The position numbers and the translations under genes are program-made. The notes below the pieces were generated by a model. The model saw only the letters and a list, made by a program, of their open reading frames with translations, made no database searches and was not told the DNA's origin. Source: Blasia pusilla (lineage: Eukaryota). From it: 64,000 nucleotides of DNA. The stretch covers positions 5,952,001 to 6,016,000 of the forward strand of contig CM114271.1 of NCBI GenBank assembly GCA_050084515.1, given 5' to 3'. Below are positions 1-50,200 of the stretch, one piece after another. How positions within the stretch are numbered: position 1 is the stretch's first letter; each line of letters starts with the position of its first letter.

Positions 1-1060
1 AGGCACGAACGTCAATCTGTCTTTGAGTAGCTAAAATGCTCTCTCGTGCTCATCCTCCCAGTGCCACTCCTCATCCACCTTAATCAGCAAGGTTGACGGC
101 TTTGCAATTGAACTGAAACCCTTGACGTACCGTCGATAGAAGTTTTCCAATCCCATGAATGCACCAACTCGACTCACATCTGTAGGGCGTGGAATGCGTG
201 AAATAGCCTCTACCTTTTTCTGTTGCATGCCAAGGCCCCCTAGGTATATCGTATGACCAAGGTACTCAATCTGGTCGTAGAAGAACTTGCACTTGCCAGG
301 ATGTAGCTTCAGCCCATGTAACTGCAATCGTTGAAACACCTCCTCTAGATGTCGCTCATGCTCCTCAACTGTGGAGCTAAAGATTACGATGTCATCAATA
401 TAACACCTAGCAAAATCCAGACCTACCAAGATCCTACCCATGACCCTTTGAAACTCATACGGAGCGTTGTTTAAGCCAAATGGTAAGAACCGCCACTGAA
501 AGAAATAATCCTTCCCGTGAGGATCGATGCCCCAAAATACCGTCTTCTGCGTGTCCTCCAATCTGATAGGCAACTGATGGTATCGGGCTCAAAGATCTAA
601 CAAACTAAAGACCTTTGCATGCCCAATAGCATCAAAGATATCCTCAGGGGTGGGCATGTCATACCTATCAAACTTCGCGTGCCGATTGATAGGTCGGTAA
701 TCTCCACACATCTGCCTATCTGTCCAGTTGCCATGCACATCCTTCTTGGTTGGCATGACCATGGCAGATGCATACTTTCAATGGGACATCTCCACTAGTC
801 CTGCTCCAACCAAGTCATGGCTCCTACTCTGAATCATAGCCCTCTCTATATCACTATACATGTAGGACCGTCAGAAGATAGGCGTGTTGCTCGATAACTC
901 AATGCAAATCCCTAGACCCTTCAGCATACCCAAGTCATGCATACTAAATGCAAAGCAGCTCCTATAACTCCTAAGGAACTGGTGTATCCAACGCCGCTCT
1001 CCTCCTATCAACTTGGGGCCCATATCTGGCTCCCAAGGCTCTGACGTGGGTGTAGGTAGT
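1..1060 (-). mobile_element. Ty3/Gypsy retrotransposon reverse transcriptase region (degenerate, runs off the window edge)
   Basis: ORF 31..573 contains RFLPFGLNNAP, CYIDDIVIFS, YLGH and FMGLENFYRRYVKGFS. Manual translation of 575-960 gives MCGDYRPINRH..DRYDMPTPEDIFDAIG..FSLLDL*ARYHQLPI, i.e. Gypsy RT motifs with stop codons. Confidence 0.95.
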
Positions 1061-1329
1061 TGCTATGTTGCAACCCCGTCTCGGACAACAAAACTCGACT
1101 GCTCCCCTGCAGCCAACTGCAAAATCGGATCTCCATGTGAAGTATCTGGAACCACCCTCGATGTTGTGGCTACCATCCCTTGGCGTACTTGCAAAAAATC
1201 CCAAGAAGTCCAAGGGTATCTCTCTCGATCACCCCTGGTGTGTCGGTCTCCTGGAGTCTCGCCCTCAGCCACTACCTCAACCGTCTCGGTAGGCATGGGG
1301 CTCACCAACGCAATAATTGTGATCTGTTC

Positions 1330-1625
1330 CATCCTCAAATGACACTGCTCAGCTACGCCCAAGCTGAACATCCATGTCAAGCACTTCAAGTCCATCTCTT
1401 GACGCAAGACATGACATCGTGATGCCTTTGATAGTGACGGTATTATCGTCACTCCTGTGGGGAATCCCATCGCTTGCTCTTACTCATCAGCGTTGGGCTC
1501 CACCAACCGATGTACCTCGTCATCCCAAACCTAGCCAAGTCCGGCCTTCTTAAATGCATAGGAAGCGGAAAAACTCACCAGTGTGGGAAAGGCTACCCGT
1601 GGCATGCCAATCGTGTTGTTGTCTA
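1330..1625 (-). pseudogene. C-terminal part (motifs IX-X) of a DNMT3-like C5 cytosine methyltransferase domain, directly upstream of the Gypsy RT
   Basis: Translation NTIGMPRVAFPTLVSF..VEPNADE*EQAMGFPTGVT..LSKASRCHVLRQEMDLKCLTWMF resembles the DNMT3 pattern E.ER.FGFP..YT....S...RQRLLG.SW. Confidence 0.75.
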
Positions 1626-1981
1626 AGAGGAGCATGTCATTTAGTAGATGGAACAAGGTTTTTGCTAAAAAACAACTCTTCTAAGTTTAGTGAAATCAAA
1701 ATGTTCAATAAATGAGATGTGTTGGCCTCGGGATATAAATGAATGCATGCATCGTCTTCTAAAACTCTATATCATGGTTTCCATTATCTACATCGAAGTG
1801 TTGCTAGATGAAGCCCATCATCGCATGTGCATCCTCATCATCTAGAATATTCGTCTAGGATCGACAACCTTATGACCTAAATTAGTATATAATCTCCTTC
1901 TTAACAACATTACATGCCAATCATCATCCATCCTTCTAGCCAAATATGCATAATGATTAATTGCACATAGGGGTAGAAATA

Positions 1982-2022
1982 TGTCATGACTTTTAGGATA
2001 GATGGGCGAGATATAGTAGAGG
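1982..2022 (+). mobile_element. 5' terminal ~40 bp of an LTR (same family as the solo LTRs at 22970 and 49082)
   Basis: TGTCATGACTTTTAGGATAGAT matches TGTCACGACTTTTAGGATAGAT at 22970. Confidence 0.7.
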
Positions 2023-2149
2023 TAGGTTGCGGCTACTAGGATAGCGGAGATGCGCGCTAGACCTGCAATAGAGCGTGCCATGGCTTCTCCTCGTGTTTTT
2101 TTGGTGGATAAACGGGGAGAGGCCTTTGAGTAGGTGAGTCCATGAGGTA

Positions 2150-2520
2150 GAGCTTTTAGTCCGCAGCGTGTCTTGTTGGATTCAGGAGCACAACTCCTGA
2201 TGTTTGAGGAAAGCAACATTCACAGGATTGGGCTTGACGAGAGCCGATGTGGAGCGCTATCCATTTTGGATATAAACATCCTTGGGTGGAACGAGTACCA
2301 CACTGTATATCACCTGACAAGAAATCGTGGTAAGGATTCGCCCAAGACATCCTACAGATGAGTACGTGGCGCGAGCCAAGGCGATAGTGAGCGATGCAGA
2401 GTCCTACGACGTCTTGGTTGGTGGAGCAGTGTTGTACCCAATGGGGTTTTTCCTAGATTAGTGGGAGGAGTTAGGGTCCTACAGACCAAGATGGAAATCA
2501 GGCGCCTTAGCTCATTACCC
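2150..2520 (+). mobile_element. Retrotransposon aspartic protease remnant
   Basis: RVLLDSGAQLLM (D-S-G catalytic motif, ~2167-2200) and a downstream SYDVLVGG motif (~2402), with frameshifts. Confidence 0.8.
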
Positions 2521-2859
2521 GTTTGATTCACAGGCGCAGTGATCGAGCGACGGTCAGGAGAGATGGCGACCTTAGCAGCATTTAGCAGCGCCATCACTTG
2601 GCCTAGAGATTTGATTGAGGGACACATCCATGCAGAGGAGACTCCCATTCCTGACATTTCTATGGAGAGGAGTGTCATGATAGTCGCCTCAGTCCGTGGA
2701 GGAGAGGTGCCACTTTGGGGCTCGACGGAGAAGCTCCGACGCTTGGCCATTGAGCATGTGCAGACCGCGTGGAGTGAGGCATTTGCACCAAAGCGTGCAA
2801 GGTTAGAGGGACCCGAGGTAGCCGTGAGTGCTATTATGACCCCTTTGGACACCACACTG

Positions 2860-3540
2860 ATTGTGTGGCGCATCCCAAAGGAGGGTATTCGCGTGTTGGA
2901 TCTCTTTGGAGGGATCAACACCGGTTTAGCTGCTATTTTGTAGGCAGGAGTAGACGTGCAACAGTACCTATACATGGAGATTGATGATATTACGAGGCGC
3001 GCTTCACTTCATCATGTGGCGTAATTATGCCTTCATTTTCCCGACTTGGTATCTGCGTCCGTTGTTTAGGGATACCAAAGTTCCCTACCGAGGGATATTT
3101 CATTCCTGGGGGAGCAGGACTTGGAGCGGGTAGGGACCATAGACTTTGTCATTTCTGGTTGGCCGTGTTAGGGCCAGTTGAGTACTAGGCAGGGTAGAGG
3201 ATTAGCTGACTTGCGGTCCATGTTATTTTGGGAGATGATGCGGATCTTGCGACATTTCCATGAGCATCAGTCTCGTTCTCCAACATACATTCTGGAGAAT
3301 GTGCCAATTTTGGGCGATTCGAGGTCCCGCGCGGTGACAAGTGCACATCAGGTACGCGCATGGATCGGCCCTGCAATGTTGTTAAATGCGGCAAGTGTAG
3401 GTTCTAGAGCACACCGCCCGCATCTTTGGAGGACCAACTTGGTACCACACGAGGTGTTTGTAGAGGGCATATGCGCGAGTGGAGCGCCCCTCCCAGTTGT
3501 TGGTGGATTCCATATTGGATCCAGGCTAGAAGACACGATA
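2860..3540 (+). pseudogene. N-terminal catalytic part (motifs I-VIII) of a DNMT3-like C5 cytosine methyltransferase within a retrotransposon pol
   Basis: One reading frame shows IRVLDLFGG (motif I), YMEID (II), DFVISGWPC* (IV), YILENV (VI) and RAHRPHLWRTNL (VIII). In-frame stops at 2941, 3022, 3067 and 3169. Confidence 0.9.
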
Positions 3541-3989
3541 CCATGAGAACGCGAGAGGCAAGACATTTTTGTAAAATTGTCTTTGCCGCTTTACAATCAT
3601 TCTATCCTTGTTGTGTTGTGTATATTTAGATTCCCGTCGCTTATTAAGTTAATGGACTAGGAGGTTTTGACATCCACCACCAAAAAGGTGGTACAAAAAC
3701 TCATAGTGGACTAAGTGACTCATCCGCTTACATGGACATTGAGAGGATATTATGGAATGGCAAAAAGGCCCATGAAATGAGCGATTGGGGCTTCTCATTG
3801 ATGATATATTATTGCATAGTCAACATGTAAATCTTACTTGATATTCCATGTGATGCTCATAATCTACAATCTCTCATCTTAGTTTAGTATGAAGAAGGTT
3901 CATTTTATATTGATGATGTTCAATGAAAATATGACAAAATTTCTCCCGCCCCAACCCTCTCCCGAAACTTATATAGACTTGAATTTAAA

Positions 3990-4985
3990 AAATTCCCTTA
4001 GTCTACATTTCCTTATATGACTGAATCCCAAGTACCATAATTGCATCATGTCTATTATATCTCCATATTTTGTGCATAGTGTAATAGCTCCACCTATAAT
4101 GGCATCACCTCCAAACTTATATAGGGTTCAAACCTTATTGCCTTTCATCAAGATTATGACTCCTTTTGAAACTCTTAGAACTCCACCTTTTCGTTCAAAA
4201 TTTGCAGCAATTATCATCCAACACACTTAGAGATATCAAGTTCTTTCACACATTATGGACATGTTTGATCTCATTCAATGTTCAAAAAGTCTCATCAAAC
4301 ATATTGATGCAAACAAAACCAATATCCATTATCTTGCATGGCATGTTGTTCCCTATCAATAAAATTCCACTAGCCCAATTAATATATGTATAGAAGCACT
4401 CTCTGTGAGGACCCATATGGCAAGAGCAACTGTAATTTATGTATCATAAAAGATATCCATTTTAGAAATTAAAATTAGTATATAGTCATCTCCATCCAAC
4501 TCCGCCACACTAGCATGTTCGGAGGTGTGAGATTTCTCTATATTTATGTCGCTAAGTGGGTCCTTTCTCTGTGCCTCTATATAGTCTGTCTTCATATGAC
4601 CAATCTTTGTGTAAGTCCAACATATGCCTTTCCTATTAGTACCACTATCACTAGATCAAGACTTCGATGTATATTTACCTTTGATGTAACTCCTATCAAT
4701 TGGCCTACTTAATCACCTACTTCATGCAACAAGAGCCTCTGAGTTCTTATCCTACAAACCTATAATCTTCATTTATGAAATTTTACAACACTTTGTCTGC
4801 ATGACTTAAAGGAATTATACTGAAACCTCTCGAATTTTGGTCTTTCCATTGTACGAGGGTCTTATCCGTTGGTTTATTCTCTAATGCTTTATATAGTCAT
4901 TTTTAAACTAAACATTATTTTACCTTCAATTTCCATAAACTAAAATTTCTCTTCCCATCAAAGTTCTCCTGCTCAAATTTTTCAT
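3990..4985 (-). mobile_element. Ty1/Copia gag-protease remnant
   Basis: Manual translation: KFEQENFDGKRNFSLWKLKV (gag N-terminus, ~4975), SCSCHMGPHRECF (protease), IGNNMPCKIMDIG..KHVHNV*KNLISLSVLD..GGVLRVSKG. Confidence 0.8.
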
Positions 4986-5508
4986 TATAAATCTTTCACA
5001 AATGCTGTTGCAAAATTTCCTTTCCTGCACTATTATGCCAAATATTTGAAGAAATTGAAGAATTATTGAGATAGATTACACATGATATAAGTGGTTCACT
5101 TCATACTAGGAAGTTGCATCCATATTCAAACACTCTCATGTTGCTTTACGAAAACCTTCACACATTATACATCAAGAGTTCTCTAAGACGCTTTCCTCAA
5201 GCCTAAAGCCCCACGCATGGAATAAGAATAAAATGTAACGTGGCTTCATTCATACAGCCACGAAAACACAACCTTAATATATTCCCCCCCTCCCCCTCCC
5301 AATCCCAAACCTATTGAAGATTTTATTATAGTGAAGTTTATCGAACACAAGAATTGTTGTATTTAATATTCACACTGAGTAGGAAATCTTAATCATGGCT
5401 TGTCTATTAACCATAATAACCTTAACTAAGCTTATTTTATCATATAACTCCTCATATGTTTAAGGTTCTTGTGTGTCAAACACATAGTGTCATGTTTTCA
5501 ATCCCCAT

Positions 5509-5755
5509 CAAGATTGCATATGGACAAAGTTCGTGTCCGCGGACATGTTCATGTCCGTAGACTTATGTTAGTTCTATAGAAGGACTTGTTCGTATGGGCC
5601 CCGTATCCTCCTTCTTTCTCATTTCCCCTATTCCCTCTTCCTTATTACCCCGCCCGCCCTTGCCCTACCTTCCACCATGAACTATAAGTGTGGGGCCCAC
5701 ATTTTGCAATCCATGTCCAAACTTGCATGTACATGTTTGTTTTTATGCAACCATG
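5509..5755. mobile_element. Candidate hAT-type MITE
   Basis: Imperfect terminal inverted repeats (TIRs) CAAGATTGCATA / TATGCAACCATG. Flanks ATCCCCAT (5501-5508) and ATTCCCAC (5756-5763) resemble a decayed 8-bp TSD. Confidence 0.45.
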
Positions 5756-6299
5756 ATTCCCACCCTTCATATACTCACTCTACACCATAAAAATTCCTCA
5801 AGAGTCTTTTAGAAGTGAATGTTATACATCATAGATATCTACATACAAAATTTCTTTTATTAGTATGCATATGACTAGCATATATCCATGGTCATCTTTT
5901 GCTTACTCTTTGTGAAATCTTGCTAATTGAATAAGAGAGAATATAAGCACTTATAACCTCTTTTAATTCCATAAGTGTCATTAACTTAAGGGTGTTTGAC
6001 ATGAAGGATACCTTTGGGAGTATCCCCCAATTCCCCCTTGCCTAGAAGAGGAAGACTTGGAAATTTTATAATTCAAAAATTCTTCAAGCATTTAATGCTT
6101 TATGCAAATAACAAGAAATTGGGAGAATCTTCAAAATAAGTAACACACACATCCATATGTTTTTTTTTTCAGCAAATCCTATATGTATTTGGAAAAAAAT
6201 CAATTAGTCTTCTATCTTCTTTTATCTCTATGCTATAGTTTGTATGTCATGTATTGGTTATGGATAAGCCTTCCTCTCATTTTCACCCTTTAGCTATTA

Positions 6300-6640
6300 G
6301 AGAAACACTATATCACTTGGCTAGCCGATCCCTTTTTTCTATAGTTTTGTCAACACTTTAGCTCTCACATATTTCCTCATCGATACTTGGTGACTACCTT
6401 TGGTGATTTTGAGGCAATACTTCATGAGAAATGCTCTATCCTTTATATTCATCCAAATTGGATAGTAATTGAAGTTTATGTAGCTATTATCTTTGATTTA
6501 ATTTCTTGTTGGATGATATTTTACGAGTTAAGTAGTACATGAAGTCAACTAGAAATTATTGTTCTATTTGTGCTTTCCTTCTATGACTATGATTCATCTA
6601 TTTTCTATCTTCTAGAATAGAATATCCTCCAATCAACACA
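6300..6640 (+). mobile_element. Degenerate CRE-like non-LTR RT fragment
   Basis: HIFPHRYLVTTFGDFEAILHEKCSILYIHPNWIVIEVYV..FYDYDSSIFY aligns by eye with HLFPHQFGVATLGHCEIVVHWIRSTLDIHPEWVTIQVDI..LYAYDTPIIY at 22330-22570. Confidence 0.7.
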
Positions 6641-9600
6641 GTATGTAGGAGCATCGAAATGATTCCAATTGGCATTGTGAGGCTTCCCTCCATAATTCTA
6701 ATTGAACCATCTTATTTTATGAATTAGGATTGAATCTAGTCTTACAACTTAAAGGTTTCTCCGGTACAAAATTATTATGTTGATCAATCTTCTAGAATCA
6801 TGGAATGTGATACATAAAGGAAAAATCTGCTCAAAGTAACAAAATATTTGTTTGGAGATCTCGAAAGGCTAGACTCGAGAGGTTTGGTGAGAAATTGTTA
6901 AAGCCATGATTTATTGACGCTGGTATAGCAACCTCTGTGATAGGACAATCTTTTAGAATAGCAAGTTAAACCTTCTATATTTTGTTCATACAAGCCCGAG
7001 CTCAAAATAACTTATATGTGTAGCATTGTGATATTTAGAGTGGAAGGTCAAAAAGTGATATATGTAGGTTCACATGACTTATGCATGGGTTTAGGGTGAT
7101 AAATCCTTTGTGTGGATTCTAGGGTAAGTAGTTATTGTTCCCACATTTACATATAGAGAGAGGGACGAGGTTCTCTTATTCTCTTTGTGCAGGTTCTATG
7201 ACAAAAATTAGCAATGCAAAGCTATTAAATTGAAATTTCATGGAATTAAAAATTCCATGAAATTTCAAAGAGCTTTTCATTGCGTGATTTCAATCTTTTA
7301 AGATCGTCTTTAAGACGATAGGTAGATCATTGATGTGTATAGAATACTGGATTATTTTAAGTTGGATGTGATGGTGCTAAATAGAGTTAGGAGACATAAC
7401 CATAAGTCAAAAGAGCAAATTTGTGGTCTTTATATACATGTGTGTGAGTATTTACATATGTGTAAGAATATTTCCGTATGGTTGGAAGATCAACACTATA
7501 TATGGTATGATTTCGAAAAAATGTGTGAGTGTATCACATTTCTTATATCATAGTTGATTGAGCATTAAAATTTTACCACCTCGATGACGTAGTGGGTTCT
7601 CTGATTTTTTGGTCGTATCATTGTTTTGAGAACGTGGTCAATTAAGGTTGAGGTCCACTTCGTTGTGACAAGATCAAAATTTCTGAAAAATTCCCTTTTT
7701 TTTTCTTCAAGTTGGATGATCTATTGATATGATCAACGGTCACGTGGTAACCAATGTGCACATGTTACCTTTTTGTGGTTATGTTTGGGGAAGGTGTCAT
7801 TTGATTCTTCCCAAATATAAATATAAATATAAATATATATAGGTACTGGGTTTAACTCCTAACAATTGTATCAATTAAGTGGAGTCTTAAAAAACACCTA
7901 TGTGAATGTTAGATTTCTTGTGAACTATTAAGTGCGCAATTCATTAAAGTATTCAAAATTTATTTTATTATTCTTATTATTACTTGCATTTGTAATTATA
8001 TTAGTTTTCCATTATTTTTTGTAGATTTTGTTTCCCTTTTGGGTTAGTTTAAGTTTATTAGTCTTCTTAAAAGAAAATTATATGGTGAAAAGATGTTTTC
8101 TCTTCATAAATGCCAAGAGTTTTGAATGATTTTTTTTTTCTATCAAACTTAATTTTTTCTAATAATCTTTACTATTATGCAATGCTTTGCTTCTTTGAGA
8201 TGTTGACACTTGAAAATTTTCATCATTGTGAGCTTGCCACCTATCCCACTTATTCTAGATTCGTACATGAATTGGATTTTGGATTCTATCAAATTATGAG
8301 CAATTTGAATTACCCATCATTAACCAATGAGCTTCCACTAATAATAATAGATCACACTTTGATGATTAAAAAGTAAGGACGTGATCGAAGATGCTTTAAA
8401 GCATAACCCAAACTTTTCCCGTGTTCATTAAACCAAACGAAAGCACTTTTTTGTATTCGGTGAACTATTTGATACCAAAAGACTCCATATTTTCAATTAA
8501 ATTTTTAACTGAAAAATTAGGAACGAAAATTTTAATCGTCCGTCTCAACACGTAACCCCGATTCTCCCCTTAGGTTGGTAAGATATCCTACGTAAACTAG
8601 GGACGAAAGCAGGTATCATTTTCCCTTGAAGCAAACATCTAAATGTGGCGCACTGGTATGGTAGGCTAATGACGGCCCAACGATCGCCGACGACAGCATC
8701 CCCACCGGCTGCTATATTTACCGTCGGTAGGCGCCACCTACGCCGGGGATTTCAAGAAACGTGTAGGCTGGCAGATGAATCCTATCCACAATACAAAAAC
8801 CAATTTCCTCTGAGAGGAGGACTTGAGCTGTGCCACGTCAGCAACACAAGAGACCATATGTGGTGAGCATGCCCGTCGTTTGCAAAACAACTCTCGCGGA
8901 AACACGTGGCAGAAGGCTCTTTGTCGTTGAAGCCCCATTCTTAAATAAAAAAAATAAAGTACAGAGTCATCTGGACGGCCGTCCATCTCCAGGAGGCGCG
9001 AAAGACCGATTCCTATTCCTCCGCTCCGCTTTCCCTGCCCGGTCCCAGATCTCCACCGTCACGGCCTATGGAGGACGAGTTGTCACACCCTGTATGGTTC
9101 CAATCGGACGGCTTTTACGCTCCAAGTCAGTACCTTCGGGCTTCACCGAGGCATCATTCAGGAGACACCGATATAGCCGGTCAACTGGACACCTACCCCA
9201 GGCAGTCGACGGCTACATACCCCATCTTTGAGAACTTTTGCGGGCGCCACCTGGTGGAGGCGCCCCCCGAGCGTACCTAATAGGGGCGCGAGTCGCGCGA
9301 CCTATCCGATGTGGACGGAATACTACTACTAGTACTACTCCTTCACAATACCACCTCTTACGTTACTGTGCTGACACACAGAATCGTTCCGTGCTCTAGA
9401 TTTAGATCTGGAGCGGTATTGAAAGAGTGAGTGTACTGCATATTCCGAGAGAATACAGATACGACGTGTCGAATATCGATGAGATTTTATGGACTTTGAC
9501 TTTCCGCGCACAACTGGACTCTGGAGCGAACGCATTTCGAAGTTTTGGATTTTCTTATGATCCGTAAGCCCACCCCACTAGTACGGAGGGTGATCGGACA

Positions 9601-10599
9601 CGAAAGAAAGGAATGTACGACTTCTTTCCGGGCTTGACCGTCAAGGCTTTGTTTCTCCCCGGGCAGCCGGGCTTCGAATAGCTTCGCTCTCCCTGAGTTT
9701 CTTTCCATCCGGCGTTCGAGGGGCTTCGTTCTCCCTTTGGGGAATGGGATGTCCACTCCACTTACACTTTCTTTTTCATATTAACTTTCGCAAGTTTTTC
9801 CTCGCGGGTTAATTTTTTCATTGGTGTTCGTATTTTTTGTTTGGGTTTTTTTAAATGATGGGGAGTGTCAAGAATCTATCTTATCCACGGAGGAACGTTT
9901 CTCAAACGGTGAATTCATCACGTGTTTTTTAATAGTGGGACCACGCGTGGCATGGGTAGGGGGGCATTAAAGTAACCGGGTGTGGCATGGATAAGGGGGC
10001 ATTAAAATAACCGGATATCCAAGGTAAGGGACTGATGCCTGCCCCCTCACAAGTCCTAACTAGTATTAAAAATCTTCGGGTTATGTTTATGAATCATGAT
10101 ATTATGGGCATCGGCTCAAACCGAGAAGTTCCCGCATGTGAAGCCTTTTAAATTTTTTGAGTTTTTATTTGGTTATAATATAATTTACGAGATCTTTTCA
10201 TCCATGCATTCCACTTGATGGATGTGATATGAATGGATGCCCATGAGGAGCTTCAAATTGAGAGTACATTACTTATATATATATATATACTAGAATGTAA
10301 AATAGAATAAAATCAAATCTAATTACACATTAGAAGTACATGGAGCATTTTAATGAGGAGGTAGTTGTAAAAAAAAATTATAAGATATAATCTAGGATTA
10401 ACTTGATTGGAAGTGGCTTCACTTCTTTTGGAAGCTAATTTCTTCCATGATAACAAATTCCCCTTTCCTTCCATTATAGTATAGATTATTGTTGTTTTCG
10501 TATTTGAAAAAAAAATTCTCTCGTTATAAATACGGCGATGTATATCCTACTCTTGTAAGATAGGAATGTTGAAGAAGTCAACTAAATCTTAGATCACTA

Positions 10600-11250
10600 G
10601 ATAAATGAAAAAGAAATGCCAAATATCTTCATGAAATAATTGATTAGAACTAAAAATGATGGCAACTAAGGACAATGGAAAGATCACCTCGATCCACAAA
10701 TATTTTTTGAACTACCTTTCTTGCATCTCAAAATCCAAAAGACATAGGAAATTAAAATCTACATAGATCAAAAGGTAATCCAAAGTTAGACACAAACAAA
10801 AGGATAAACATTAGTTTTGCATTTATCCCTTTACTTTGCGGTATCAAAATAATCGTATCACTTTAAATGTTAATATTGTAAAAAATTTCAAGATCATTCC
10901 CACGGTAATATCAATAAGATCTCTTCAATTGATTAATTTTAGTTACCATATTAAAATCATCAATCCTATAAAATCATCTCCTAGGTTTGGATGCAGATGT
11001 ATACGTTCTATCCCTCCGCAGTTAGTTAAATGTACAGCGCTCATGCTAGCAAGGACCCAAGAAGAGAGTATCGGTATATCATGGTTCAAATGAGAAGAGA
11101 CCTTTGTGTGAACTATCAAAGTCAAAACCTAGACTAGCGAGTTGCAAGACTAGAATGGGTAACGAAACCTACATCGGGACTAACTCTAGTTTTGATGGGC
11201 GCTAGAGACTAACCTCAGGAGAAAGGGCGCATATTCACTTGCACGGATGA
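10600..11250 (-). mobile_element. Possible highly decayed CRE-like non-LTR 3' region
   Basis: VHLTNCGGIERIHLH resembles the VHLARCPVGGERIATH knuckle of the other CRE copies. A DLIDITV motif follows downstream. Weak evidence. Confidence 0.3.
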
Positions 11251-12313
11251 GGGTTAGCCAAGAGATGTGAAAGATCCTTGAGTTGGGTTTTGAGTCAAGG
11301 AGGAGTAGCAATGAAGAAGATAGTAGCTAAGATGGGCGATACGTAATGAGATTAGTCACAAAACATGCAGGACGGCAAGACAACCATGAGACATCAAATA
11401 GCAAAAGTCAAAAAGAATGCTAGCCATAAGATGCACGAAATGGGGGTAAAGTAAAAATGAGTTTGGGGAAGTCAAGCAGGGCAGATCCTGCCAATAGAAT
11501 TCTCCAAGTCATCTTGAGGGTTAACTAATTAAACACAGTTCCGCTAGAAGCAAACCACATTTATGTTGTTGGTCAAATCAAATCAAGGGCCTGAGGCGGA
11601 TATCATGAGATGTTGGATATTTAATATCTACTTTTTTACTAACATCATTAATCTAAATGTTCCCCTTGTATGAAGAGAATCATAGATTTATGGTCTCAAC
11701 TTAGACGTCACAATAGTTATAGATATATGGAATAGGTGGTTTATGGAATAGAGTGTTATTAGGTTGATCTAAAACTATATTTCACTAGGATGTGAGACAC
11801 GTTAATGCAAGATAGGGTTAACTTTTTTCTGGAAATAGAATTGACGAAAAAAGGTCAAATACTCTAATTCCCCAAGTAGTCACATACTTGGGGAACAACA
11901 ACAGTAATGCATTCTTGTCTTTCAAAAATTTTCTATATTCAACTTCTATTGAAGTTTTAATATGAGCGTAAGGATGGACTAGGTAACTTTATACTATCGA
12001 TGTTTGTTATATCTTGAGTGATTTGTTCACATTGTGTTTTCTTCTATAAGGAAGGAGCTACATGTTTATGGGGATGAGATGCATACCAAGTGCCTTAATC
12101 AATGGAGTTGGGAGTTGAGGCCAGTTTCAATTATATAATCATCTTGGTCTCTTCCCAGGGATCTTAGCAGACAATGATACACACCTCCCTGAAATTCAAA
12201 GCTTTTGATGGCCCCTACATAGAATGAAAGCTTTCAATCTGGATCAAATTCAAATCCTCCATTCTATGCCATAGATAAAATTTGAATATCATTTAAATTA
12301 AAATTCTAGATAG

Positions 12314-14000: not shown

Positions 14001-16891
14001 ATGGTATACTACATTCGTAGAAATGTTTTACCCACCTATCATTCACAACTTCTATTTCTTGGAGATTGAAAGAATCCCTCAAATCTCCTTGCTTTCTTCT
14101 AAGGTTGCTACTTAGTTTAGTTGGCCCAACTATCCCTTCAAATTTGTCCTATTTGTCAATTGATATCATGTTTGAAACTCCATCTATACCACTGTATTTG
14201 TCGATGCTTTGTAACTCCTTAGAGTCGCAAGTCAGCCGCACTAGAATCACATCCAAGCCAAAACTTTGAGAGTGCTTGACTTCCAATGAATTCGTATTAA
14301 CAAATAGTTGAATTCACACTTTGTGAATTTGATGCGTCTCTAAAGTTTGGTTCTATTACACTCATACTCCACGTGCAAGATATTTGCAAAGACTAACTAG
14401 CAAGACAATTGTAAGGAACTCGCAATTGGCTTGTAAAGAGCGTCTGACTTGCGAGTTTGTGTAGCAGCAAATAAGTCAGAGAAATGGACTCATACGTCAC
14501 TAAAAAAAACTAAATAATCATAAAAACTCAAAAAATGCAAGTCCAATTAGTAGTTTGGGACTAACGTAGTAGTGGTTTTCCGCCTCTTTTTTCTGTACTT
14601 TGGACTCATTTTTTTGGTGTATAAACTATTTTCCCAAGAGGGATTTGGCTCCTTCCAACTTTTCTTAGGGATGAATTTGCTCTTTTTGTTCTCCTTAATT
14701 TCTTATAGTTGGAGGAAGTAAATTTCGAGAAAAATATTGTGAACTAATAATATCTCATAATGAGCACATATCTCATAATCCCAACCTCTTCATCCACTCC
14801 TTTCCAAACATATGTTTAACCTCTTCATCCATCTCATTTTCCAGAAAATGTATCTTCTAATATAACACTTCCCTCCCCTTTCGTACCACCTACGATCCAT
14901 TTTCCCTTAGTCTTCCCTTATCCACCCCCCCAAACCTCCCTACACCTCCACCTATGTATTGCATCGTGGTGTAGGTCTCAATCTCCCAAGTGACCACTGT
15001 GTAGGTCATACTTAGGCAAATCCCTCTTCACCGTCCAACCCAAGTGCTTTGTTGAACCATTTTCCTCAAGATGATCTTGTGACGTTGTGCAGTGCTTGAT
15101 CATATAAGATATAAAACTCCTAAGAATACTCAAGGCTTTACTCTAATTATTGATATTTTCAAATTATTAATTTTGTCATTACACGTGTGAAGGGAGAGCT
15201 TTTCTTCTTGAAGGCACATTTTGCTGATACTGAACCTTTGCACATCCCTATATCATTGTCTGATTAAAATTTGAGATTAAGCATTTATATAAAGGAGAGT
15301 TATATTGACATATTTGAATTCCTTACTAGTGCCAACTTCCTAGGGTTTGGAAGAGGAAAAGAGAGAAAAAGAAGACTTTACAATATCATTCTTCTCATGA
15401 AGTTAGTCATAAGTTAGATCCAACTCGTCGATAATTGTTGGCGGAGTGTACCATTCACATAAAAAGGGATCCCAAGGAATGACAAAAATGCACAAAAATT
15501 AGAATTGGGAGTCATTAGACCCTCCCGCAGATGGCCCTTGATGTTGGTGGAACGACGCTTCGAAACGCGGTTGTTTCCTTTCGCATTCTTTTAGAAGTAC
15601 TCTAGAATTCCTTGACAGTGCAACATGCGTAACCTAAACGCAACCCTAACCGTAAGCCAACGGGCTTTCGAAGCATGCTCAAGCCTTAGGATTGAGGCCA
15701 TGCAAATTTTAGTAAACTTTCTCGAACGGATCGATGTTTCTTGCCCCGTGGCCCCTCCCTCATGAATGAAATGGCCGGAGGCTATGCGGGTAGTCCCCAT
15801 CCGTTGACAAAAAACCGGCGAGCAGAGTGCTCCGCCGCATTGTGAAGTTGTGAACGACTCGGTCCCCGTTGTTCCCGTAGACGGATTGATTATGAAGCGA
15901 AAGTTACCTAGAAATGGCAAGTCTCATTGTTGTTTGTGCTTTGTCGTCGCTCGCTGCCATGTCCTGCAGGCATCGCTCATCCCGCCCCTCACCATGAGGC
16001 GCCGGCCCCAAGCCCGCCCGCCGATCGAAGGCCAGGCAGGATGCAAGTGGAGCTTGGAAGAATGGACTTTGTGCCAATGTTCGATGCACTCGCTCACTCC
16101 ACGCAGTCTCATGTGACATGTCCAGCGCCACAGCCTGAGTCGAAGGTGATGGACGGGTCTATCGTGAAATGCAACGGAGTCCTGGTAACTGCTTCGGGTT
16201 TCATGCTTGGCGTCGTGTCCAGAGGGGTTGTCGTTTCGGAGCCTCAACCCATCCGTTCGTTCACGTGCAACTCGGAGCCGAACCCTAACCCTTGAAACGC
16301 CTAGAAGTGCGGCTGGAACGGGTGCACTCTGCGCATCGGAGGAAAGAAAAGTTCGCGGGTGAGGGGCTCTAGGTGGAGAATCCGAGAGAGCAGGTTGTGC
16401 GGGAGGCGCTGGTTCTAGGCGCGCGTGACTGGAAGATGGATTGATGGCTCGGAGATCTTGAGATAGCAAGCAAGCGACTACTGTTTGGTTTACCCTTGGG
16501 ACTGCGTGTCCGTCGTACGTTTTCGTACTCGCGTAGGACGCGCTGGGAACAGAAATGGATGAATGGAGCTTGGTTTAACACGTGCTTGCTTTCTTCTTCA
16601 CCACCGTTTCCAGAGATTGATGTCTTTCTGCAGTAAGAAAAGAAACCAGCCTCCCCGAGGAGCTAGCGTTTCTCCGGCCACTTTCAACGGTCACACGTCT
16701 TTATACAATCGAATGTCGAACGTCCCTAGCTTTTGAAATCCGTGATCTTTCTTCACGATGGCATCCGTTCAGTTTATCCAGAAACCATTCGCGTTTGCGA
16801 TTCCCTCACCAACTACTTCCCACGAGATCGCTTTTGCACAATTGGTGCGATTCCCTCTCCCAAAGCTTCGACACCAGCGTTGCTTCCACGG

Positions 16892-17732
16892 ACCACTTAC
16901 CTATACCACAGCGATGCGGTTCCGCTTGGGCCTCCCCCAACCATCGGTGGTTGGTTCGACACACTGCGAGTGTCGCCGGAGCCTGGATCCACTTGGTGTG
17001 CATTTGGCACGCTGTCCAGTTGGGGGTGAGAGGATAGCCACTCACGATGCAGTGCGGGATATCATGTTCAGTATTGCTCGGGAGAGTGGCTTCCATGTGC
17101 AGAGAGAGAGGCACTACTCCATGCGGGATTCCCTCATTCGTGCCGATCTCTACATGACACGTGAGGCTGAGGTGGTTGTGGCGGACGTGGTAGTCACAGA
17201 TCCTACGCGGGAGGCAGTGCGAGCCCAAGTGGTGGCCCAAGGGCGAATGCTACAAGGAGCGGCGGCGGCGGCGGCGGCGGCGAAGAAGACACATATCTAC
17301 TGATCGACTACACGAGGGACACATCTTCATCCCCCGGCCATAGAGATGTATGGGGCTATGGGGAGAGGTTCGACTGTTCTTTACGGATGCGCCCATCATC
17401 TCCACTCGAGAAATGGGTTGTCCTTAGCTACTGCGATTCTGTATTGACAGGCAGCTGGTCTCCATAGCGTTGCGGCGTGCCAGGCTAATGGGATTTTGCG
17501 GCGGGCTCAGTGTGGGGAGACGCCGGCGCTAGAAGCCCACTTAGTAGTAGTCATAGCTCTCTTGTTGTTGCTGATATTGTCTATGCTGTTGGTGAGTTTC
17601 GTCGTTAGGGGGGGAATGCCCCCTTCTTCCTTTTCTGGTCGTGTTGTGGCCTTCAGGTTTTGACTCTTTGAGTCCCCCTCTTTTGTACTTCCGATGGGTT
17701 TTCCATCACTCGTTTTTATCGAAGTGCATCTT
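16892..17732 (+). mobile_element. 5'-truncated CRE-clade (restriction-like endonuclease) non-LTR retrotransposon, copy A
   Basis: RFRLGLP..CECRRSLDPLGVHLARC..ERIATHDAVRD..RADL..VVADVVVTDP..K (CCHC knuckle plus RLE). Near-identical to 44813-45649. Confidence 0.9.
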
Positions 17733-23647: not shown

Positions 23648-26170
23648 AGGCCCTTTTGAAAGACGTGGAATGGCTTCATTTGTTACCTCATCTAGGAGAT
23701 CTCCAAGTGGCTTATGGGATTCCCTCCCAATGTTTTCTACAACGTCCTTCCTACCTTCTTTGCAATGGTCCTCCAACTTCAAGGTTCTTACATCAGTTGG
23801 CCTCTTTTGATGCTTCTATCTTGGCAAATTTTGGTCAACTTCTTAGCCCGAATACATTTGAGGGAGAGGATGATGTCTTGGCTTCAAGACAAGCTATCTT
23901 GCCTATTTCTTTTGGAGGGGCGGGGCTGTCCTCCAAATTGCATATGGTCCAAGAGATTATTTGGGGAGTTGGGCGTTGGTGGCACTAATTATGGCTTCAA
24001 GGTTGTTCCAAGGAGATACACCTATCTTGATGGATGACATCGCCCATATAGAAGAGGGGGACATGTTATTTCAACAACAATTGAGATATGCTTGAGCTCT
24101 TCTTCCTCTTCCTCTTATACAAGCAATTCTACCCCGTTTCACTCAATTGATGACGGAAGGGCTTGATCGACTTCAAGAGCATATCTCAGAGAATTTGCAC
24201 CAAATCAAACTTTTCCAACATTCTCTCTGAGGCATCCTCTGACGCTCATCGAGCTCGTCTCCATTCATGTGCGGGTACATGATCGCGGGCGTGGCTTTTC
24301 CGCAAATCCTCTTATTCTTCCATTTAGTCTTCCTTGAAGTATATTCTCGACAGCTTTGCCGTTACGCCTTGAACTTCCCATCCTTCTCTATTAGGTGTGC
24401 CAAATTGTGTATGCGGAGATCCCATTGATGCAAAGGGTATCCATATTCTTCGATGTGCACATGGTAGAGGAGGAACGACCACACATGATGTCATTGGAGA
24501 GGCGGTAGCAGCGGTGGCTTGTACTACAGGGGACACTGTTGGGCAAGAGCAGCTCCATGTCCTACCTTTAACCATACAAGCAACGTGTCGTCGGAGAGTT
24601 GATCTTGTTATGTATGGAGGTGGATTTTGGACACTAGGTGATGTGGTGGTTGCTGATCCAACACGTTCTGACTTGGTGTGTCGAGCCGCACATACCAAAG
24701 GTTTGGCGGGCAAAGCATCAACAAGAATGAAGGAGTTAAGTTCTGTTGCGAAGCATGCGATTGATCGATTTATTCCTTTTGGAGTGAAAATATTCGATCA
24801 TTTACATGTGTCTTTTGATACTTTCCTGAAAACATGTGCTCACCACTCCCTTGAGAATCATTACCTTGCCCCTTCCCGTAGTCCTTCTCTCTATATAGTC
24901 AATACTTATTTTTGACAATGCATCTCAATGACCTTACAACGTGCACAAGCCTTGGCATTGATGCGTCGTGTGGAGGTGATAGGAGATCGCTCGCCTCGTC
25001 GTCCGTTCACGTTTGACCAACGACTAGTGTTCTTGTCAGATTCGTTTCAAACTATCAATCGTGTATTTTTTGAGTTAGTTTTCGTCTTAGATAGTTGCCA
25101 TTTTCTTTTTGCATTCCATGACGCATTCTTGATTCCTTTTTTGAAATGTTATTACCTTTCTTTGTCCTCTTTTGAGATTTGTTTCTATAATAAAATGGAT
25201 ATTATTTTATCAGAAACAAGTGCCTAATATGAGAGGGGGTGGGGAAAAGTGCCCACACCAGTCTTCCCGTATGGGAGTCTCTCTCGAAACGAACGTATGA
25301 CCGGACTAACATGTTCATGTCCTTTTTGTGGATGGAGATAGTAATTACTGTTTCTTAGCGATGGAGAACCATGATGTAGAAACATGCGACTGTGCCACAC
25401 ATAGGACTTGTTCAGTGGTGACGGGACGCGGCTAACGCTGCCATATCCGGAATTTCCAACTTTTGGCTACAATTTTCTGGAAAAGAGGCATAAATTCTCA
25501 AACCTGAAAAGTTCAGAAAGTTTCCATTAGAAAAAAGGAGAGTTTTCTGACGTAACTGTGGAAATAACCAGCCAAGAATATCTCGCGTGAGTCGAACGTA
25601 TCAACCCGCCGATCTCGGACGCCTCCGCTCTTGCAAATTGAAACAACTGTAATGAGAAGGGTCCGCTGCTCACCATTTTGGGGACAAGTCCAGGTGTGCG
25701 AGTACCATGAGTGCTCGCACATCTGGAGCACTTACTTGGCAAAGACGGCTACCCGGTCTTTGCCAAATTTGTAGAGGATGGAGTGGATATCATGGATCAC
25801 TCAGTCAGATCGATCTGAACGGGACTGTTTTGACGAGGTGTGAGAATCCACTTCACCAGTCATAGCTAAGCAATGTGCACTCAGAATCTCTGGCTACAGA
25901 AACAATGGGTACAGTCGATGTCCGTGGATTCCACACGCCTAGCTTATCCAGCTGTTTTTGGATAGTCTTGACAAGCTGGAAGTCTTCTACGAGTGAGCTG
26001 AGGTGAGTCTTCTATGGTGGACTCATCGTTCAATTTCATATCGCTGTTAGGGACTATTACACATCATCCTTGAGAAGGCAGACCTAAAACCGCTACATGG
26101 TAAGCCAAGGATACCCAGCCCCATTCATTGCAGGAGAATGCCGATACAATGAAATTAGAATACTTATCTT

Positions 26171-27644
26171 TTATTGCGTTCCATCCTCAATGTCTTCCTC
26201 TTCTATTGAATGTTCTAGTTGCATCTTCAGCTGCTCAAGAGGGCCCCAGGATGGCTTCAATTTCACATCAACACACTTGCAGGAGTTCACATTTAAATTT
26301 ACTCCACAAGTCAGACATAGACCCTTACAGTTCCCAGAGCACAATGACTTCGATGGAATCTCTAAATGAACCGTGTCCCGAAGATACTTGGAGAGATCAA
26401 TCTCTTTCGCATCACGGGGGAAGTGGAGCTTGTCATCCAAGTCGAGGTCAAGGCCATCTTCCATATCACTGGGACCCAGGTGGGTGTTCTCGCCGAGAAC
26501 AACACCAATTCTTTGTTGTGTTGGTTCCTTCACAGGCTTCTCAGTTAAGAGCACACTGAATTCTGCAAACACTCTCTCGATGACCGGTGAAAGACACCTG
26601 CAGGCAACAGAAACATCCATCAACACATACTCCTAAATGTGCAATGGGCTACCCACCACATGTTGTAGTATGTAGGACCTCCACATTTTCCCTCACAAAC
26701 CTTGGATACCATTTTCTACACTCAGTTAGTCCATAGTTGCAAGACTGGGGACTTCCAAACCCACAGATTCTTCTAGATCCAGATGCACATGATCACGGAC
26801 ACCTTGGACGTACCAACACCGATCCACGTAAATCTAGACGTCATAACGACATTTTGCCCATGTCGTTCGTAAGCACATGCCAACAGCGCTACTGACACAT
26901 CATAGTCTCCACCAGAGGAAAGATCCGTGCAACTTCACAAACTAAAACTATCTTATATGCCATCCATGCCCTATACCATGTCCTCATTCCAAGCATTCAG
27001 TACTCCTAGCAACACGGAGTTCATTGAAATTTCCACTTTCCAGTTTTAGTTTTGAGTTACATGATTAGAAGACAATACCTGTTGCAGCAAAGACTGATTG
27101 CTGTGCGCACAAGTCCGTCCAATCGGAAGTCCCTGCCTTCTCTGGTTACGTCAATCGAGATGCCAACAGGGGTAACCTGTTCAAGTGAACTTTCAGGACT
27201 CTTGATTGCTACTCCTATCGAGTGTGCTAGGGATCTGGATGGCTCGGATGACAATACAGCCAGACCCAACCTTTCCAGGGAGGTTTGAAACTCGTAGTGA
27301 TTCCGAGTAGCACTTCGCTTGAAAACAACTGCTCCAAGCCATGGTTCTAACTCCTCAGCCCTCTCTATTTCCTCTAAATTACCATCATCCCTTAGGCTGC
27401 CACGGTCAAGGGGGAGGGCTGCTCGCTCGAAAAGGCTATTTTTGCTGCTCCTGTTGAAAGGTTTTGAAAAGGCCTTCACTGGGTTGTAAGATAGAGTGGA
27501 TTCACAAAAATGTACTCTTCTACTCCATTTCCAGCTGCTCTTGCACAAGCTGACTGAACTGATTGATTGGTGATCGGGGCATGCTCTTGCAATGTACTCA
27601 GATAAGCCCAGTGTATTGTCTCCTAATTTTACAAGTGAAACCAT
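26171..27644 (-). CDS. DUF177A: DUF177/YceD-family chloroplast 23S rRNA accumulation protein, 330 aa; exons 27644-27079 and 26597-26171
   Basis: A GT-AG intron joins ISLCCNR|CLSP. Motifs PWLGAVVFKR..LERLGL, RLDGLVRT, CNRC, IDLSKYLRDTVHLEIP, C..NCKGLC..CG.NLN and WGPL. N-terminus resembles a transit peptide. A leader-intron acceptor lies just upstream of the ATG. Confidence 0.93.
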
Positions 27645-40048: not shown

Positions 40049-40951
40049 TCAAGCATCCACAGCTGATGAACAGCAACAAAACCATTTCCTGCTTCCGTGA
40101 CTCTTGGGGTGAAGCATGTTCGGTTGTTTGTAGAGATCATCGTCGTTCGAACCATCACCCGGCTGAGGAATCCGGACAGGCCCTCCAGTTCTTTTCTCAA
40201 TTCTAGCTTTGTTGAAGATCATTGTGAAACCCTCTCCTGCCTGGGGGTTCTGGTCCCATTCGCCAAACTTCGGAAGTGCTGCAGCCCCCTTCTGAGGATC
40301 TTCCGGTTTCGAGTTTCCAGACCGAAGACGAGATCTATTCGGGGTGGGTGGGGCTAAATTCTGCGCCTCCTCTCCAGCCGGCCGTCTCCTGTTTTCCCAA
40401 GCGGGCGAGTTTCCACCAGCTCCTCCCAGCCTGCCTGCAGTCCTACCTTGGTTACCGAGTGCATGCGACGGAGACTGATCCGCAGAGACGCTCGTGGATG
40501 CACTCTCTGTGCTTCCAACATTCTCCCTACCTGCAGGGCGCTTGACATAATCGGTCGGGGGTGGCCTTGAAGGCATCGCGCTGTTTCGCCCGTCAGGATG
40601 CGAAGCCTGGGGTGGTACCGCTGCAACCTGCCTGCGTGCCGGGGCCTCGTTAGAGGGCTTGGGCAGCAAAGGCACCGGCTGCTGCCCTCTTCCTTCTCTG
40701 TTCCCTTGCCTCTCTTGATGTAGATCTGCAGCATCCATGTCCTCGGGGTCGTTAGGGTTCACAATTCGCCTACCGGGAGCATTACCATTCACTCTCCCTC
40801 CAAAATTGCCAGGATTTTCGCTGGGATCGTTCGGATTGCCCGTGTGTTTGCCTCTACCGGCACGAGCATGGTCGAAAACAGCCGTGTAGGGCACGGGGTC
40901 ATTCGCATCCCAGTTTCCAAACTTCGGCACATGAGTACGTCGTTGGGCCAT
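40049..40951 (-). CDS. RIN4: RPM1-interacting protein 4 (RIN4/NOI family), single coding exon, 300 aa
   Basis: MAQRRTHVPKFGNW..YTAVFD (N-terminal NOI), LPKFGEWD..GFTMIFNK (C-terminal NOI) and a C-terminal WFCCC acylation motif. First ATG at 40951. Confidence 0.93.
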   Translation of the reverse strand: MAQRRTHVPKFGNWDANDPVPYTAVFDHARAGRGKHTGNPNDPSENPGNFGGRVNGNAPGRRIVNPNDPEDMDAADLHQERQGNREGRGQQPVPLLPKPSNEAPARRQVAAVPPQASHPDGRNSAMPSRPPPTDYVKRPAGRENVGSTESASTSVSADQSPSHALGNQGRTAGRLGGAGGNSPAWENRRRPAGEEAQNLAPPTPNRSRLRSGNSKPEDPQKGAAALPKFGEWDQNPQAGEGFTMIFNKARIEKRTGGPVRIPQPGDGSNDDDLYKQPNMLHPKSHGSRKWFCCCSSAVDA

Positions 40952-44100: not shown

Positions 44101-44559
44101 CGAAAGCAGAGGACGGGCATTGATGAGTCTTGCGCTCCTCGGACACCGAGTCCCTGCACACATGCGTATGGGCAAAAGCCACTCCATCGCTCGCTCGATG
44201 CCTCGATCCCTCCACAGGGGGCTTTATAGAAGTGGCAGACAGACAGACTGTCACCTGATGAGACATCGACTCGGTAAGTAAAGCCGATCACTTCACGCAC
44301 CCCACGAGGCTTCTGCTCTATTCTCCGCTTCTCTCATTACTACCGCGAGTGAGTGAATGAGCGGAGGGGTGGGGGGTGAGATGGCCTGCCACGTAACCAT
44401 CTCTGCCATAAACACTGCCCCCCTCGCCATCCTCGAACTCCTGTGTCCGTTTCGTGCATTCCCATTATTTTCGTTTCCGGGCTTCAGGAGCTCGCGGCGG
44501 CGACTGTTGCGTGTTGTTGTGGTTCGCTGTCGGTGAAGTTTCATTCATTTCTCCTTCTT

Positions 44560-49420: not shown

Positions 49421-49689
49421 TAAAAACAACACACATGGTCCTCCCATAAGACCCACTACTACTTAACTACCATTTGACCCTTGAACTCTATCGGTTCAAG
49501 TGGCTCCACTCAAAGGATGAGAGAGTTAACCTCTCAAAGGTTGCTACTCCTAAAAAAGTTAAGGGTGATGTACGCTCGTAGGTCATCTCTTGAGAGCATG
49601 TTATATATCATCTCTCAAAATAGGGAAGTATAAGACTCCCCTAAGGCCTTGAAACTATCTTGCCACACGTCTCATCTACCATGACATAT

Positions 49690-50200
49690 GTGACGCTCCA
49701 TGTTGCAACCAAGCATTTTCCCTCATATGAGTTGTATTTTTGCCTCTCTAGTATTTTTCAAGCAACTAGCATTAGCCACTACAAAATCTCTTCCCTCATC
49801 ATCATGTTGGATAAGCACCACTCCTAACCCGAACATGCTCCAATTAGTATGTAATTAGAAAGGATGTTCCCTAAGTTGTCTCCTCAAGATGGGTGTGGAT
49901 GTCAATCGATCCTTGAGTAGTTTAAATTCTCTCTTATGCTCATCTCACAACTACCACGTACTCATGTTCCACCTTTGACAAAAACTTTAGTGGCTTCATA
50001 ATGATACTAAATCCCTTGACGTTCCAACAATAAAAGTTTGCTAATCCCATAAACACGTGAACTCGAATCACATCCGTAGGGCGTGGAAAGCATGACATAG
50101 CTCCTATCTTTGTCTCTTGAAATCTCCATCCACCTAGGTATATTGTGTGGCCCAAATCCTCAATCTAATGAAAGAAGCCCTAAACTTGCACTAACCTAGA
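49690..50200 (-). mobile_element. Gypsy RT-RNase H fragment of the same family as 1-1060
   Basis: GHTIYLGG..PRPTDVIRVHVFMGLANFY..VKGFS matches ORF 31..573, followed by LTSTPILR..LHTNWSMFGLGVVLIQ..YNSYEG (RNase H). Confidence 0.85.

Follow-up and report, generated by a model that had tools for sequence, protein, structure and literature searches.

The first 3,520 nucleotides of a 64-kb stretch of the liverwort Blasia pusilla (64,000 nucleotides; GenBank assembly GCA_050084515.1, contig CM114271.1, positions 5,952,001 to 6,016,000 of the forward strand; hereafter, the window) are most probably a single copy, degenerate, split and partly inverted, of a liverwort family of Ty3/Gypsy retrotransposons that carries a DNMT3-like cytosine methyltransferase (DNMT, or methylase) between protease (PR) and reverse transcriptase (RT). 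The family falls within a clade spread over the green lineage, and for its expression and activity we infer a model that is set out below. Retrotransposon-borne cytosine methyltransferases reverse the usual view, in which methylation is a host weapon against transposons; the copy in the window is only a fossil pointer to the family.

The methylase-bearing Gypsy copy at the left edge of the window

Between about 2026 and 3520, the plus strand encodes a pre-protease region, the protease, a linker and the N-terminal two thirds of a C5 methyltransferase, while the minus strand, from about 1650 to 1, encodes the remainder of the methylase, a tail of about 90 residues, an in-frame TAG and, in the same frame, a Gypsy RT. 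The features are as follows, with amino acid (aa) positions in the relatives P0002, P0003 and P0007 and with ORF for open reading frame and HSP for high-scoring segment pair:

1–1056, minus strand: RT, part of the second ORF of the element; RVT_1 match; disabling stops at 873, 780, 591 and about 30
1057–1065, minus strand: in-frame TAG (1063–1065) followed by CAA CTA, between methylase and RT; read directly
1066–1650, minus strand: C-terminal part of the DNMT3-like methylase and linker tail up to the ORF1 stop; includes the last part of the target-recognition region, then motif IX (from 1479, EQAMGFPTGVT) and motif X (about 1401–1372); stops at 1533 and 1482; tblastn matches to P0002 aa 1081–1248 and P0007 aa 1026–1168
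1651–2025: A+T-rich spacer between the two halves, without assignment
2026–2503, plus strand: pre-protease region and protease, with LLDSGA at 2173–2190; stops at 2131, 2143, 2315 and 2459; tblastn matches to P0003 from aa 102 onward and P0007 from aa 540 onward, with a frame-2 HSP at 2276–2503
2503–3459, plus strand: linker and N-terminal part of the DNMT3-like methylase; PF00145 match; stops at 2524, 2941, 3022, 3067 and 3169
2896–2913, plus strand: motif I, LDLFGG
3163–3168, plus strand: motif IV, PC, directly followed by TAG (3169) where relatives have Q
3295–3303, plus strand: motif VI, ENV
3403–3441, plus strand: motif VIII, SRAHRPHLWRTNL
3467–3520, plus strand: start of the target-recognition region, past another frameshift; frame-2 HSP to P0002 aa 1044–1061, 61% identical; the last stretch with homology to relatives before the break

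Because the plus-strand translation matches proteins of Marchantia polymorpha with a best E value of 1.6e-90, these domain matches are far beyond chance. The methylase also matched the Pfam profile PF00145 (DNA_methylase) with 25.7 bits, over a curated cut-off of 22 (E = 9.4e-6), a match that the sequence-only reading of this DNA had set as a check. On the minus strand, RVT_1 was recognized over positions 705–247, approximately (E = 3.6e-27; Pfam), and the YxDD box is visible in the translation as YIDD. C5 motifs IV (PC), VI (ENV) and VIII (R-x-R), and the order I to X, were recovered across both halves.

Most of what had been read from the letters alone thus found a place in this map. The LLDSGA protease expected at about 2170 is present, and the minus-strand motifs IX and X do lead into a Gypsy RT, in a single frame that can be traced to base 4, where it exits the left edge of the window. 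The C5 motifs had been described as lying in one frame; I, IV, VI and VIII share a frame from 2503 to 3459, although it holds five in-frame stops. Likewise, protease and methylase follow each other on the plus strand in the order claimed, but not as one continuous frame, with the frames of the HSPs shifting near 2270, 2503 and 3460.

We read the two halves as one copy that was split in the target-recognition region, between motifs VIII and IX, and whose 5′ part became inverted relative to the 3′ part. This is deduced from two properties of the sequence, a matching breakpoint and an equal divergence of three segments. The plus-strand half covers aa 540–986 of P0007 and, in the numbering of P0002, reaches residue 1061 at window position 3520; the minus-strand half covers aa 1026–1275 of P0007 and begins at about residues 1072–1083 of P0002, at window positions 1645–1617, approximately. 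In a polyprotein of about 2,400 codons (1,369 plus 1,047 aa in the intact relative L001, see below), the two halves thus complement each other with a mismatch of no more than about 10 codons. As for divergence from the same Marchantia family, amino acid identity is 57–59% for the N-terminal half of the methylase (56–59% to the Marchantia copies over 2503–3459), 58–60% for its C-terminal half and 59.7% for the RT.

Several properties of the copy weigh against our main explanation as a whole. It contains 15 disabling stops and three frameshifts; protease and RT are found on different strands, and the positions of RNase H and integrase would fall beyond the window edge. No similarity to the gag part of the Marchantia Gag-PR-DNMT proteins was found in the window at E<1, nor any long direct repeat within positions 1–12000; the 3′ end of the element falls outside the window. 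The 375-nt spacer at 1651–2025, which showed neither similarity to those Marchantia proteins at E<1 nor a repeat elsewhere in the window, separates the halves, and a clean inversion with two breaks does not account for it. Beyond 3546, an unrelated Copia fragment takes the place of the gag expected from a simple two-break inversion, and therefore the rearrangement was more complex, or the copy was truncated beforehand. Evidence in this species, finally, amounts to this single non-intact copy in 64 kb.

The spacer and the missing gag beyond 3546 could also be explained if the head-to-head layout had arisen from two copies of this family, each truncated on its own, or from an error of assembly. 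We consider this rather unlikely, because two independent truncations would hardly end within about 10 codons of one another, and because all three segments are equally diverged from Marchantia (57–60%). In the DNA sequencing run X7, 435 reads aligned, 391 of them overlapping the stretch only in part and 23 with a likeness of 99% or more; depth was 0 at 1681–1820 and about 0.5 per direction at 3501–3640, and no joints were reported. The RNA runs X10, X11 and X12 gave 22, 15 and 30 aligned reads, respectively, every one only partly on the stretch. Their main pile, at 561–840, has loose ends at 680 and 712 and fits over only some 30–40 nt.

The copy split in this way is a dead, degenerate fossil. 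Nine of its stops are in the plus-strand half and six in the minus-strand half, and the one at 3169 has taken the place of Q in the catalytic PCQ motif. Thirteen stops can be aligned to a Marchantia residue, and in eight cases this is R or Q (2315, 2524, 2941, 3022, 3067, 3169, 1482 and 873), as would be expected from C-to-T decay of CGA, CAG and CAA codons, which we infer. C-to-T decay is ordinary for silenced plant transposons. A dead and inverted copy does not show the lineage to be still functional in this species.

Relatives in Marchantia and across the green lineage

All nine matches retrieved with the plus-strand translation were hypothetical proteins from M. polymorpha (E values from 1.6e-90 to 2.3e-31). 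As gene models drawn across transposon copies, they encode Gag, CCHC knuckles, LLDSGA and the methylase motifs I to X, and at 57–60% amino acid identity they are the closest relatives of the copy in the window. In two of them, P0003 and P0007, RT and RNase H follow the methylase; for P0003, Pfam recognizes DNA_methylase, RVT_1 and RNase H. The RT of the window is 59.7% identical to that of P0003 over 320 aa, and 57% identical to ORF2 of L001. On the negative side, the Marchantia models skip defects, with P0007 lacking motif IV and P0006 part of the domain, so several of them probably bridge damaged copies. Pairwise identity among these models is likewise confounded by their gaps and gives no estimate of recent activity.

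With a profile restricted to the methylase (from alignment A2), a search of 1.84 billion representatives of clusters at 50% identity gave 3078 matches at E<=1e-3, of which 833 reached E<=1e-10 and 231 reached E<=1e-30. We mapped the domains of the best 150 of these matches together with four Marchantia proteins (n = 154). Retrotransposon domains accompany the methylase in 90 of the 154, the other 64, many of them short pieces, having the methylase alone. In 73 proteins, the methylase is preceded by RT/RNase H and/or followed by integrase, which usually comes with a PHD finger; in 17, it is preceded by protease and/or followed by RT.

The protease-first layout is complete in P0087, for which Pfam gives zf-CCHC, aspartyl protease, DNA_methylase, RVT_1, RNase H and integrase, and it also ends in integrase and PHD finger (P0268, P0277 and P0279). 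The Pol order protease, RT, RNase H, integrase occurs in P0087, P0268 and L001, and Gag with a CCHC knuckle in the Marchantia proteins, P0087 and L001. A methylase lying between protease and RT in one reading direction, as the sequence-only reading predicted for other copies, is hence found in P0003 and P0007 of Marchantia, in P0087 and P0268, and in the metagenomic L001. The second and commoner layout is RT, RNase H, DNMT, integrase, PHD finger, as in P0084, P0105 and P0109 and also in P0227–P0255, P0273 and P0234; the methylase of P0109 is under the Pfam threshold and was placed there by the A2 profile. PF00145 scores among relatives are 27–51 bits.

Named hosts of the second layout are three chlorophytes, Haematococcus lacustris, Chlamydomonas eustigma and Cymbomonas tetramitiformis, and those of the PR-DNMT-RT layout are M. 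polymorpha and two Closterium strains. For proteins of the dinoflagellate Prorocentrum, matches to the family profile reach only about 1e-10, and Klebsormidium has no row among the 74 named matches of that profile. A protein atlas search returned only generic methylase clusters, with nothing usable on taxa.

In a methylase tree of 68 rows, rooted on Prorocentrum, the N-terminal half from the window and four Marchantia rows form a clade with a support of 100 in the Shimodaira–Hasegawa-like approximate likelihood ratio test (SH-aLRT). The 33 PR-DNMT-RT rows also form one clade, and a single change of layout appears on the tree. The support of that clade is only 87, which counts against the scheme, as does a root that hangs on one long Prorocentrum branch, so we assign no direction to the change of layout. 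As judged from these protein comparisons, the family belongs to a large green-lineage clade of methylase-bearing Gypsy elements. Its wide spread, with 231 clusters at E<=1e-30 and hosts from a prasinophyte to liverworts, argues for long persistence and not for a one-off capture.

The opposite strands of the methylase and RT halves, in a region that is a patchwork of transposon debris, might invite the idea that a host DNMT3 pseudogene came to lie beside an unrelated Gypsy element by chance, an idea with a negligible probability, given that the same domain order recurs in the nine Marchantia models, P0087, P0268 and the intact L001, that the minus-strand frame passes from motifs IX–X through the conserved TAG CAA CTA into the RT with no change of frame, and that 90 of the 154 mapped proteins carry retrotransposon domains, even if the remaining 64 show the methylase alone. 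We regard this juxtaposition as refuted by the PR-DNMT-RT order shared with relatives and by the continuous minus-strand frame.

The stop after the methylase and the type of enzyme

A scan of metagenome contigs with P0264 yielded six loci, including L001, L002 and L003, while the same scan with P0077 yielded no relative. L001 is an intact environmental relative of 9317 nt. Its ORF1 (976–5085, 1369 aa) contains CCHC, DSG, motif I, PCQ, ENV and AHRxR and terminates in TAG; its ORF2 (5086–8229, 1047 aa) continues the frame of ORF1 with RVT_1, RNase H, the integrase zinc finger, rve and a PHD finger. L002 and L003 have the same lone in-frame stop. A 23-nt direct repeat is present at the contig ends of L001 (11–33 and 9257–9279, with a spacing of 9246 nt). 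These repeats are probably the starts of two long terminal repeats of an element of about 9.25 kb, the contig ending inside the second one.

The context of the stop is as follows in the three metagenomic loci and in the window:

L001, 5083–5091: TAG CAG TTA
L002, 2081–2089: TAG CAG TTA
L003, 4661–4669: TAG CAA TCA
Window, 1065–1057, minus strand: TAG CAA CTA

TAG followed by CAR YYA was thus found between methylase and RT, with the downstream ORF in frame, in all four DNA sequences examined. Besides, 12 PR-DNMT relatives end 81–125 aa past the methylase, with tails that are alike. All four fit UAG CAR YYA, the leaky-stop consensus of several plant viruses. In view of the conserved layout in the relatives, the TAG at 1063–1065 of the window is probably the natural stop of ORF1, in a leaky context, and not a product of decay. 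The conservation of TAG CAR YYA in these sequences suggests that read-through is programmed, the methylase being on the side of Gag and protease.

The sequence-only reading had proposed that a polyprotein lineage of the type PR-DNMT-RT-RNase H persisted in this land plant. The lineage itself is borne out by the family members in Marchantia, but in the nearest relatives at the DNA level the in-frame TAG splits methylase and RT. The architecture is therefore better described as Gag-PR-DNMT plus a read-through extension than as one plain polyprotein.

The integrase of L001 ends in a PHD finger (8020–8226, the C-terminus of ORF2) and not in a chromodomain, as is also the case for P0084, P0105, P0109 and P0268. 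Among solved structures, this finger is nearest to those of CHD4, PHF12, PHF21A, KDM5, KAT6A, DPF3 and UHRF1. Several PHD fingers of these types read the unmodified tail of histone H3. If the integrase finger did so, it would echo the ADD domain of host DNMT3s; we offer this analogy only as a lead.

The methylase had been called DNMT3-like from its motifs, and the solved structures, to which this comparison of subfamilies is confined, agree. The best chains for the family profile are DNMT3A (E = 2e-21) and DNMT3C and DNMT3B (about 1e-19 to 1e-18), ahead of tobacco and Arabidopsis DRM (1e-14 to 4e-11), M.HhaI (2e-8) and DNMT2 (5e-5); no solved DNMT1 chain matches at E<=0.01. The alignment to DNMT3A is collinear through motif I, motifs IV–VIII and motifs IX–X, so the domain is not rearranged as it is in DRM. 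Pfam scans of 14 relatives showed neither PWWP nor ADD. Some DNMT3s are described as having no identifiable companion domains (PMC12344493), so PWWP and ADD are not strictly defining.

Pairs of L001, L002 and L003, which are relatives and not the copy in the window, gave ratios of nonsynonymous to synonymous substitution (dN/dS) of 0.12, 0.15 and 0.10 for the methylase over 335–336 codons. For comparison, the ratio is 0.06–0.08 for ORF2 and 0.44–0.54 for the tail between methylase and stop. In 50 members with 29–47% identity to the Marchantia domain, neither the catalytic Cys nor the Glu of ENV ever varies, and conservation is 90% or higher for Q in PCQ, for H-R-x-R in motif VIII and for other positions. 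Low dN/dS and conserved catalytic residues together point to a working enzyme.

It could be argued that the methylase of the family has ceased to methylate DNA and is retained for something else, such as DNA or RNA binding or a structural part in the particle. Such a loss of activity would be in line with QAMDLN at motif X, in place of the GNS-type motif of many enzymes, and with the failure of KnitGypsy-Dnmt3, the element of Klebsormidium nitens, to give methylation in yeast (PMC5890265). This yeast experiment is the only published activity assay of a Gypsy-DNMT3 and, as a negative result, it speaks against an active family enzyme. According to the same article, however, its authors consider it inconclusive because human DNMT3B failed too. 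Given also the catalytic residues retained across the 50 members and a dN/dS of only 0.10–0.15, we think it improbable that activity has been lost.

In intact relatives, the element has the order Gag (CCHC), protease, DNMT, a single in-frame UAG, and RT, RNase H, integrase and PHD finger. Gag, protease and methylase would together form the abundant upstream product, and RT and integrase would arise only by read-through of the stop. The enzyme would be a working de novo methylase acting on the newly made or newly integrated DNA of the element itself, marking and damping the new copy, and the PHD finger may steer integration by reading the histone H3 tail.

A wider proposal is attractive, although we hold it only tentatively and would not call it probable. 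Liverworts, including M. polymorpha, may host an old, green-lineage-wide clade of Gypsy elements with PHD-bearing integrases and a selectively maintained DNMT3-like methylase. In its streptophyte branch the methylase would lie upstream of a leaky UAG and be made in Gag-like amounts, and intact copies would produce an active de novo methylase that marks their own DNA and could leak onto that of the host. If so, the leaking methylase would be a transposon-borne contributor to land-plant methylomes. The conserved leaky stop and the PHD finger of the integrase are concrete handles on the mechanism of the element.

Known systems and other features of the window

Gypsy elements with a DNMT3-like domain were described in K. 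nitens by de Mendoza et al. 2018, as acquired "in the K. nitens lineage" (PMC5890265), and a preprint of May 2026 lists "streptophytes (Gypsy-DNMT3)" as a separate, earlier case (bioRxiv 10.64898/2026.05.21.726589). Gypsy-DNMT3 in streptophytes is hence already described, and the liverwort family extends it into land plants. Like the present family, KnitGypsy-Dnmt3 has a non-rearranged DNMT3-like domain within a Gypsy coding region, in a streptophyte, and keeps key catalytic residues; its reported Ka/Ks is below 0.2 (PMC5890265), compared with 0.10–0.15 among the relatives of the copy in the window. The differences, which are drawn from the published description and not from a sequence comparison, are that our family occurs in liverworts and, by named matches, in Closterium and three chlorophytes, and that neither a leaky stop after the methylase nor a PHD finger is mentioned in the article text (PMC5890265).

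That text contains no occurrence of Marchantia or of liverwort. The sequence-only reading knew of no good description in embryophytes, and our literature search similarly found no paper that reports retrotransposons with a methylase from liverworts or any other embryophyte; the supplements of PMC5890265 and PMC12344493, which might list some, were outside this search. In the literature searched, the streptophyte case rests on one alga. What is new with respect to the text of that literature is the presence in land plants, including about nine M. polymorpha loci such as Mp8g17980 and Mp8g15430, the breadth of the two layouts across green algae, and the conserved leaky stop. With about nine annotated loci in a tractable plant, the purpose and activity of the enzyme, and its effect on host DNA, become testable in a land plant, and knock-outs and methylome tools are available in M. 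polymorpha for such questions.

Two elements of Symbiodinium, SymbioDIRS-Dnmt3 and SymbioLINE-Dnmt, are also retrotransposons with C5 methyltransferases, but their backbones are a DIRS element with tyrosine recombinase and a LINE, whereas the present family is Gypsy; SymbioDIRS-Dnmt3 is DNMT3-like and methylates CG in yeast (PMC5890265). Among host enzymes, the catalytic domain resembles that of DNMT3s (human DNMT3A/B and mouse DNMT3C, and PpDNMT3b and MpDNMT3b of plants) in being collinear with DNMT3A. Unlike them, the family proteins lack PWWP and ADD and sit inside a retrotransposon polyprotein, and in the alignment their motif IV is PCQ where DNMT3A has PCN. Plant DRM enzymes, which are DNMT3-derived and the second-best group of solved matches, have a rearranged motif order, whereas the family keeps I to X. 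Finally, chromoviruses and the recently described EpiLTRs are, like our family, Gypsy elements with a chromatin-reader module on the integrase, and EpiLTRs also carry a cytosine methyltransferase (bioRxiv 10.64898/2026.05.21.726589). The reader of chromoviruses is, however, a chromodomain at the C-terminus of the integrase and that of our family a PHD finger, and the EpiLTR methylase is described as DNMT4-related and located at the 3′ end of pol (bioRxiv 10.64898/2026.05.21.726589).

The rest of the window contains further transposon remains as well as host genes. Right of the Gypsy relic, at about 4210–4440 (minus strand), there is a Copia-type Pol_BBD fragment (E = 6.4e-13). A second Gypsy fragment at 49686–50176 (minus strand) comprises the end of an RT and RNase H (RT_RNaseH_2, E = 1.9e-11), with about 59% protein identity to the main copy and no adjoining methylase. 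Repeated ORFs at 16746–17303, 44412–45026 and 24373–24915 (all on the plus strand) have in common a Cys/His-rich stretch, which occurs as HCECRRSLDPLGVHLARCPVGGERIATHDA and as a looser relative; Pfam recognized nothing significant in them, and they probably represent another transposon family. At 26174–26632 (minus strand), a YceD (DUF177) domain (E = 2.1e-22) marks an ORF that is probably an exon of a host gene for an organelle-ribosome factor. A RIN4-like host gene at 40052–40948 (minus strand), whose matches place the window in a complex thalloid (marchantiopsid) liverwort other than M. polymorpha, is an intronless single open frame of 299 aa, whose product has two PKFG-W-D motifs and a C-terminal CCC; its best match is RIN4 of M. 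polymorpha (61%), followed by proteins of Riccia (49–52%) and Calypogeia (41%).

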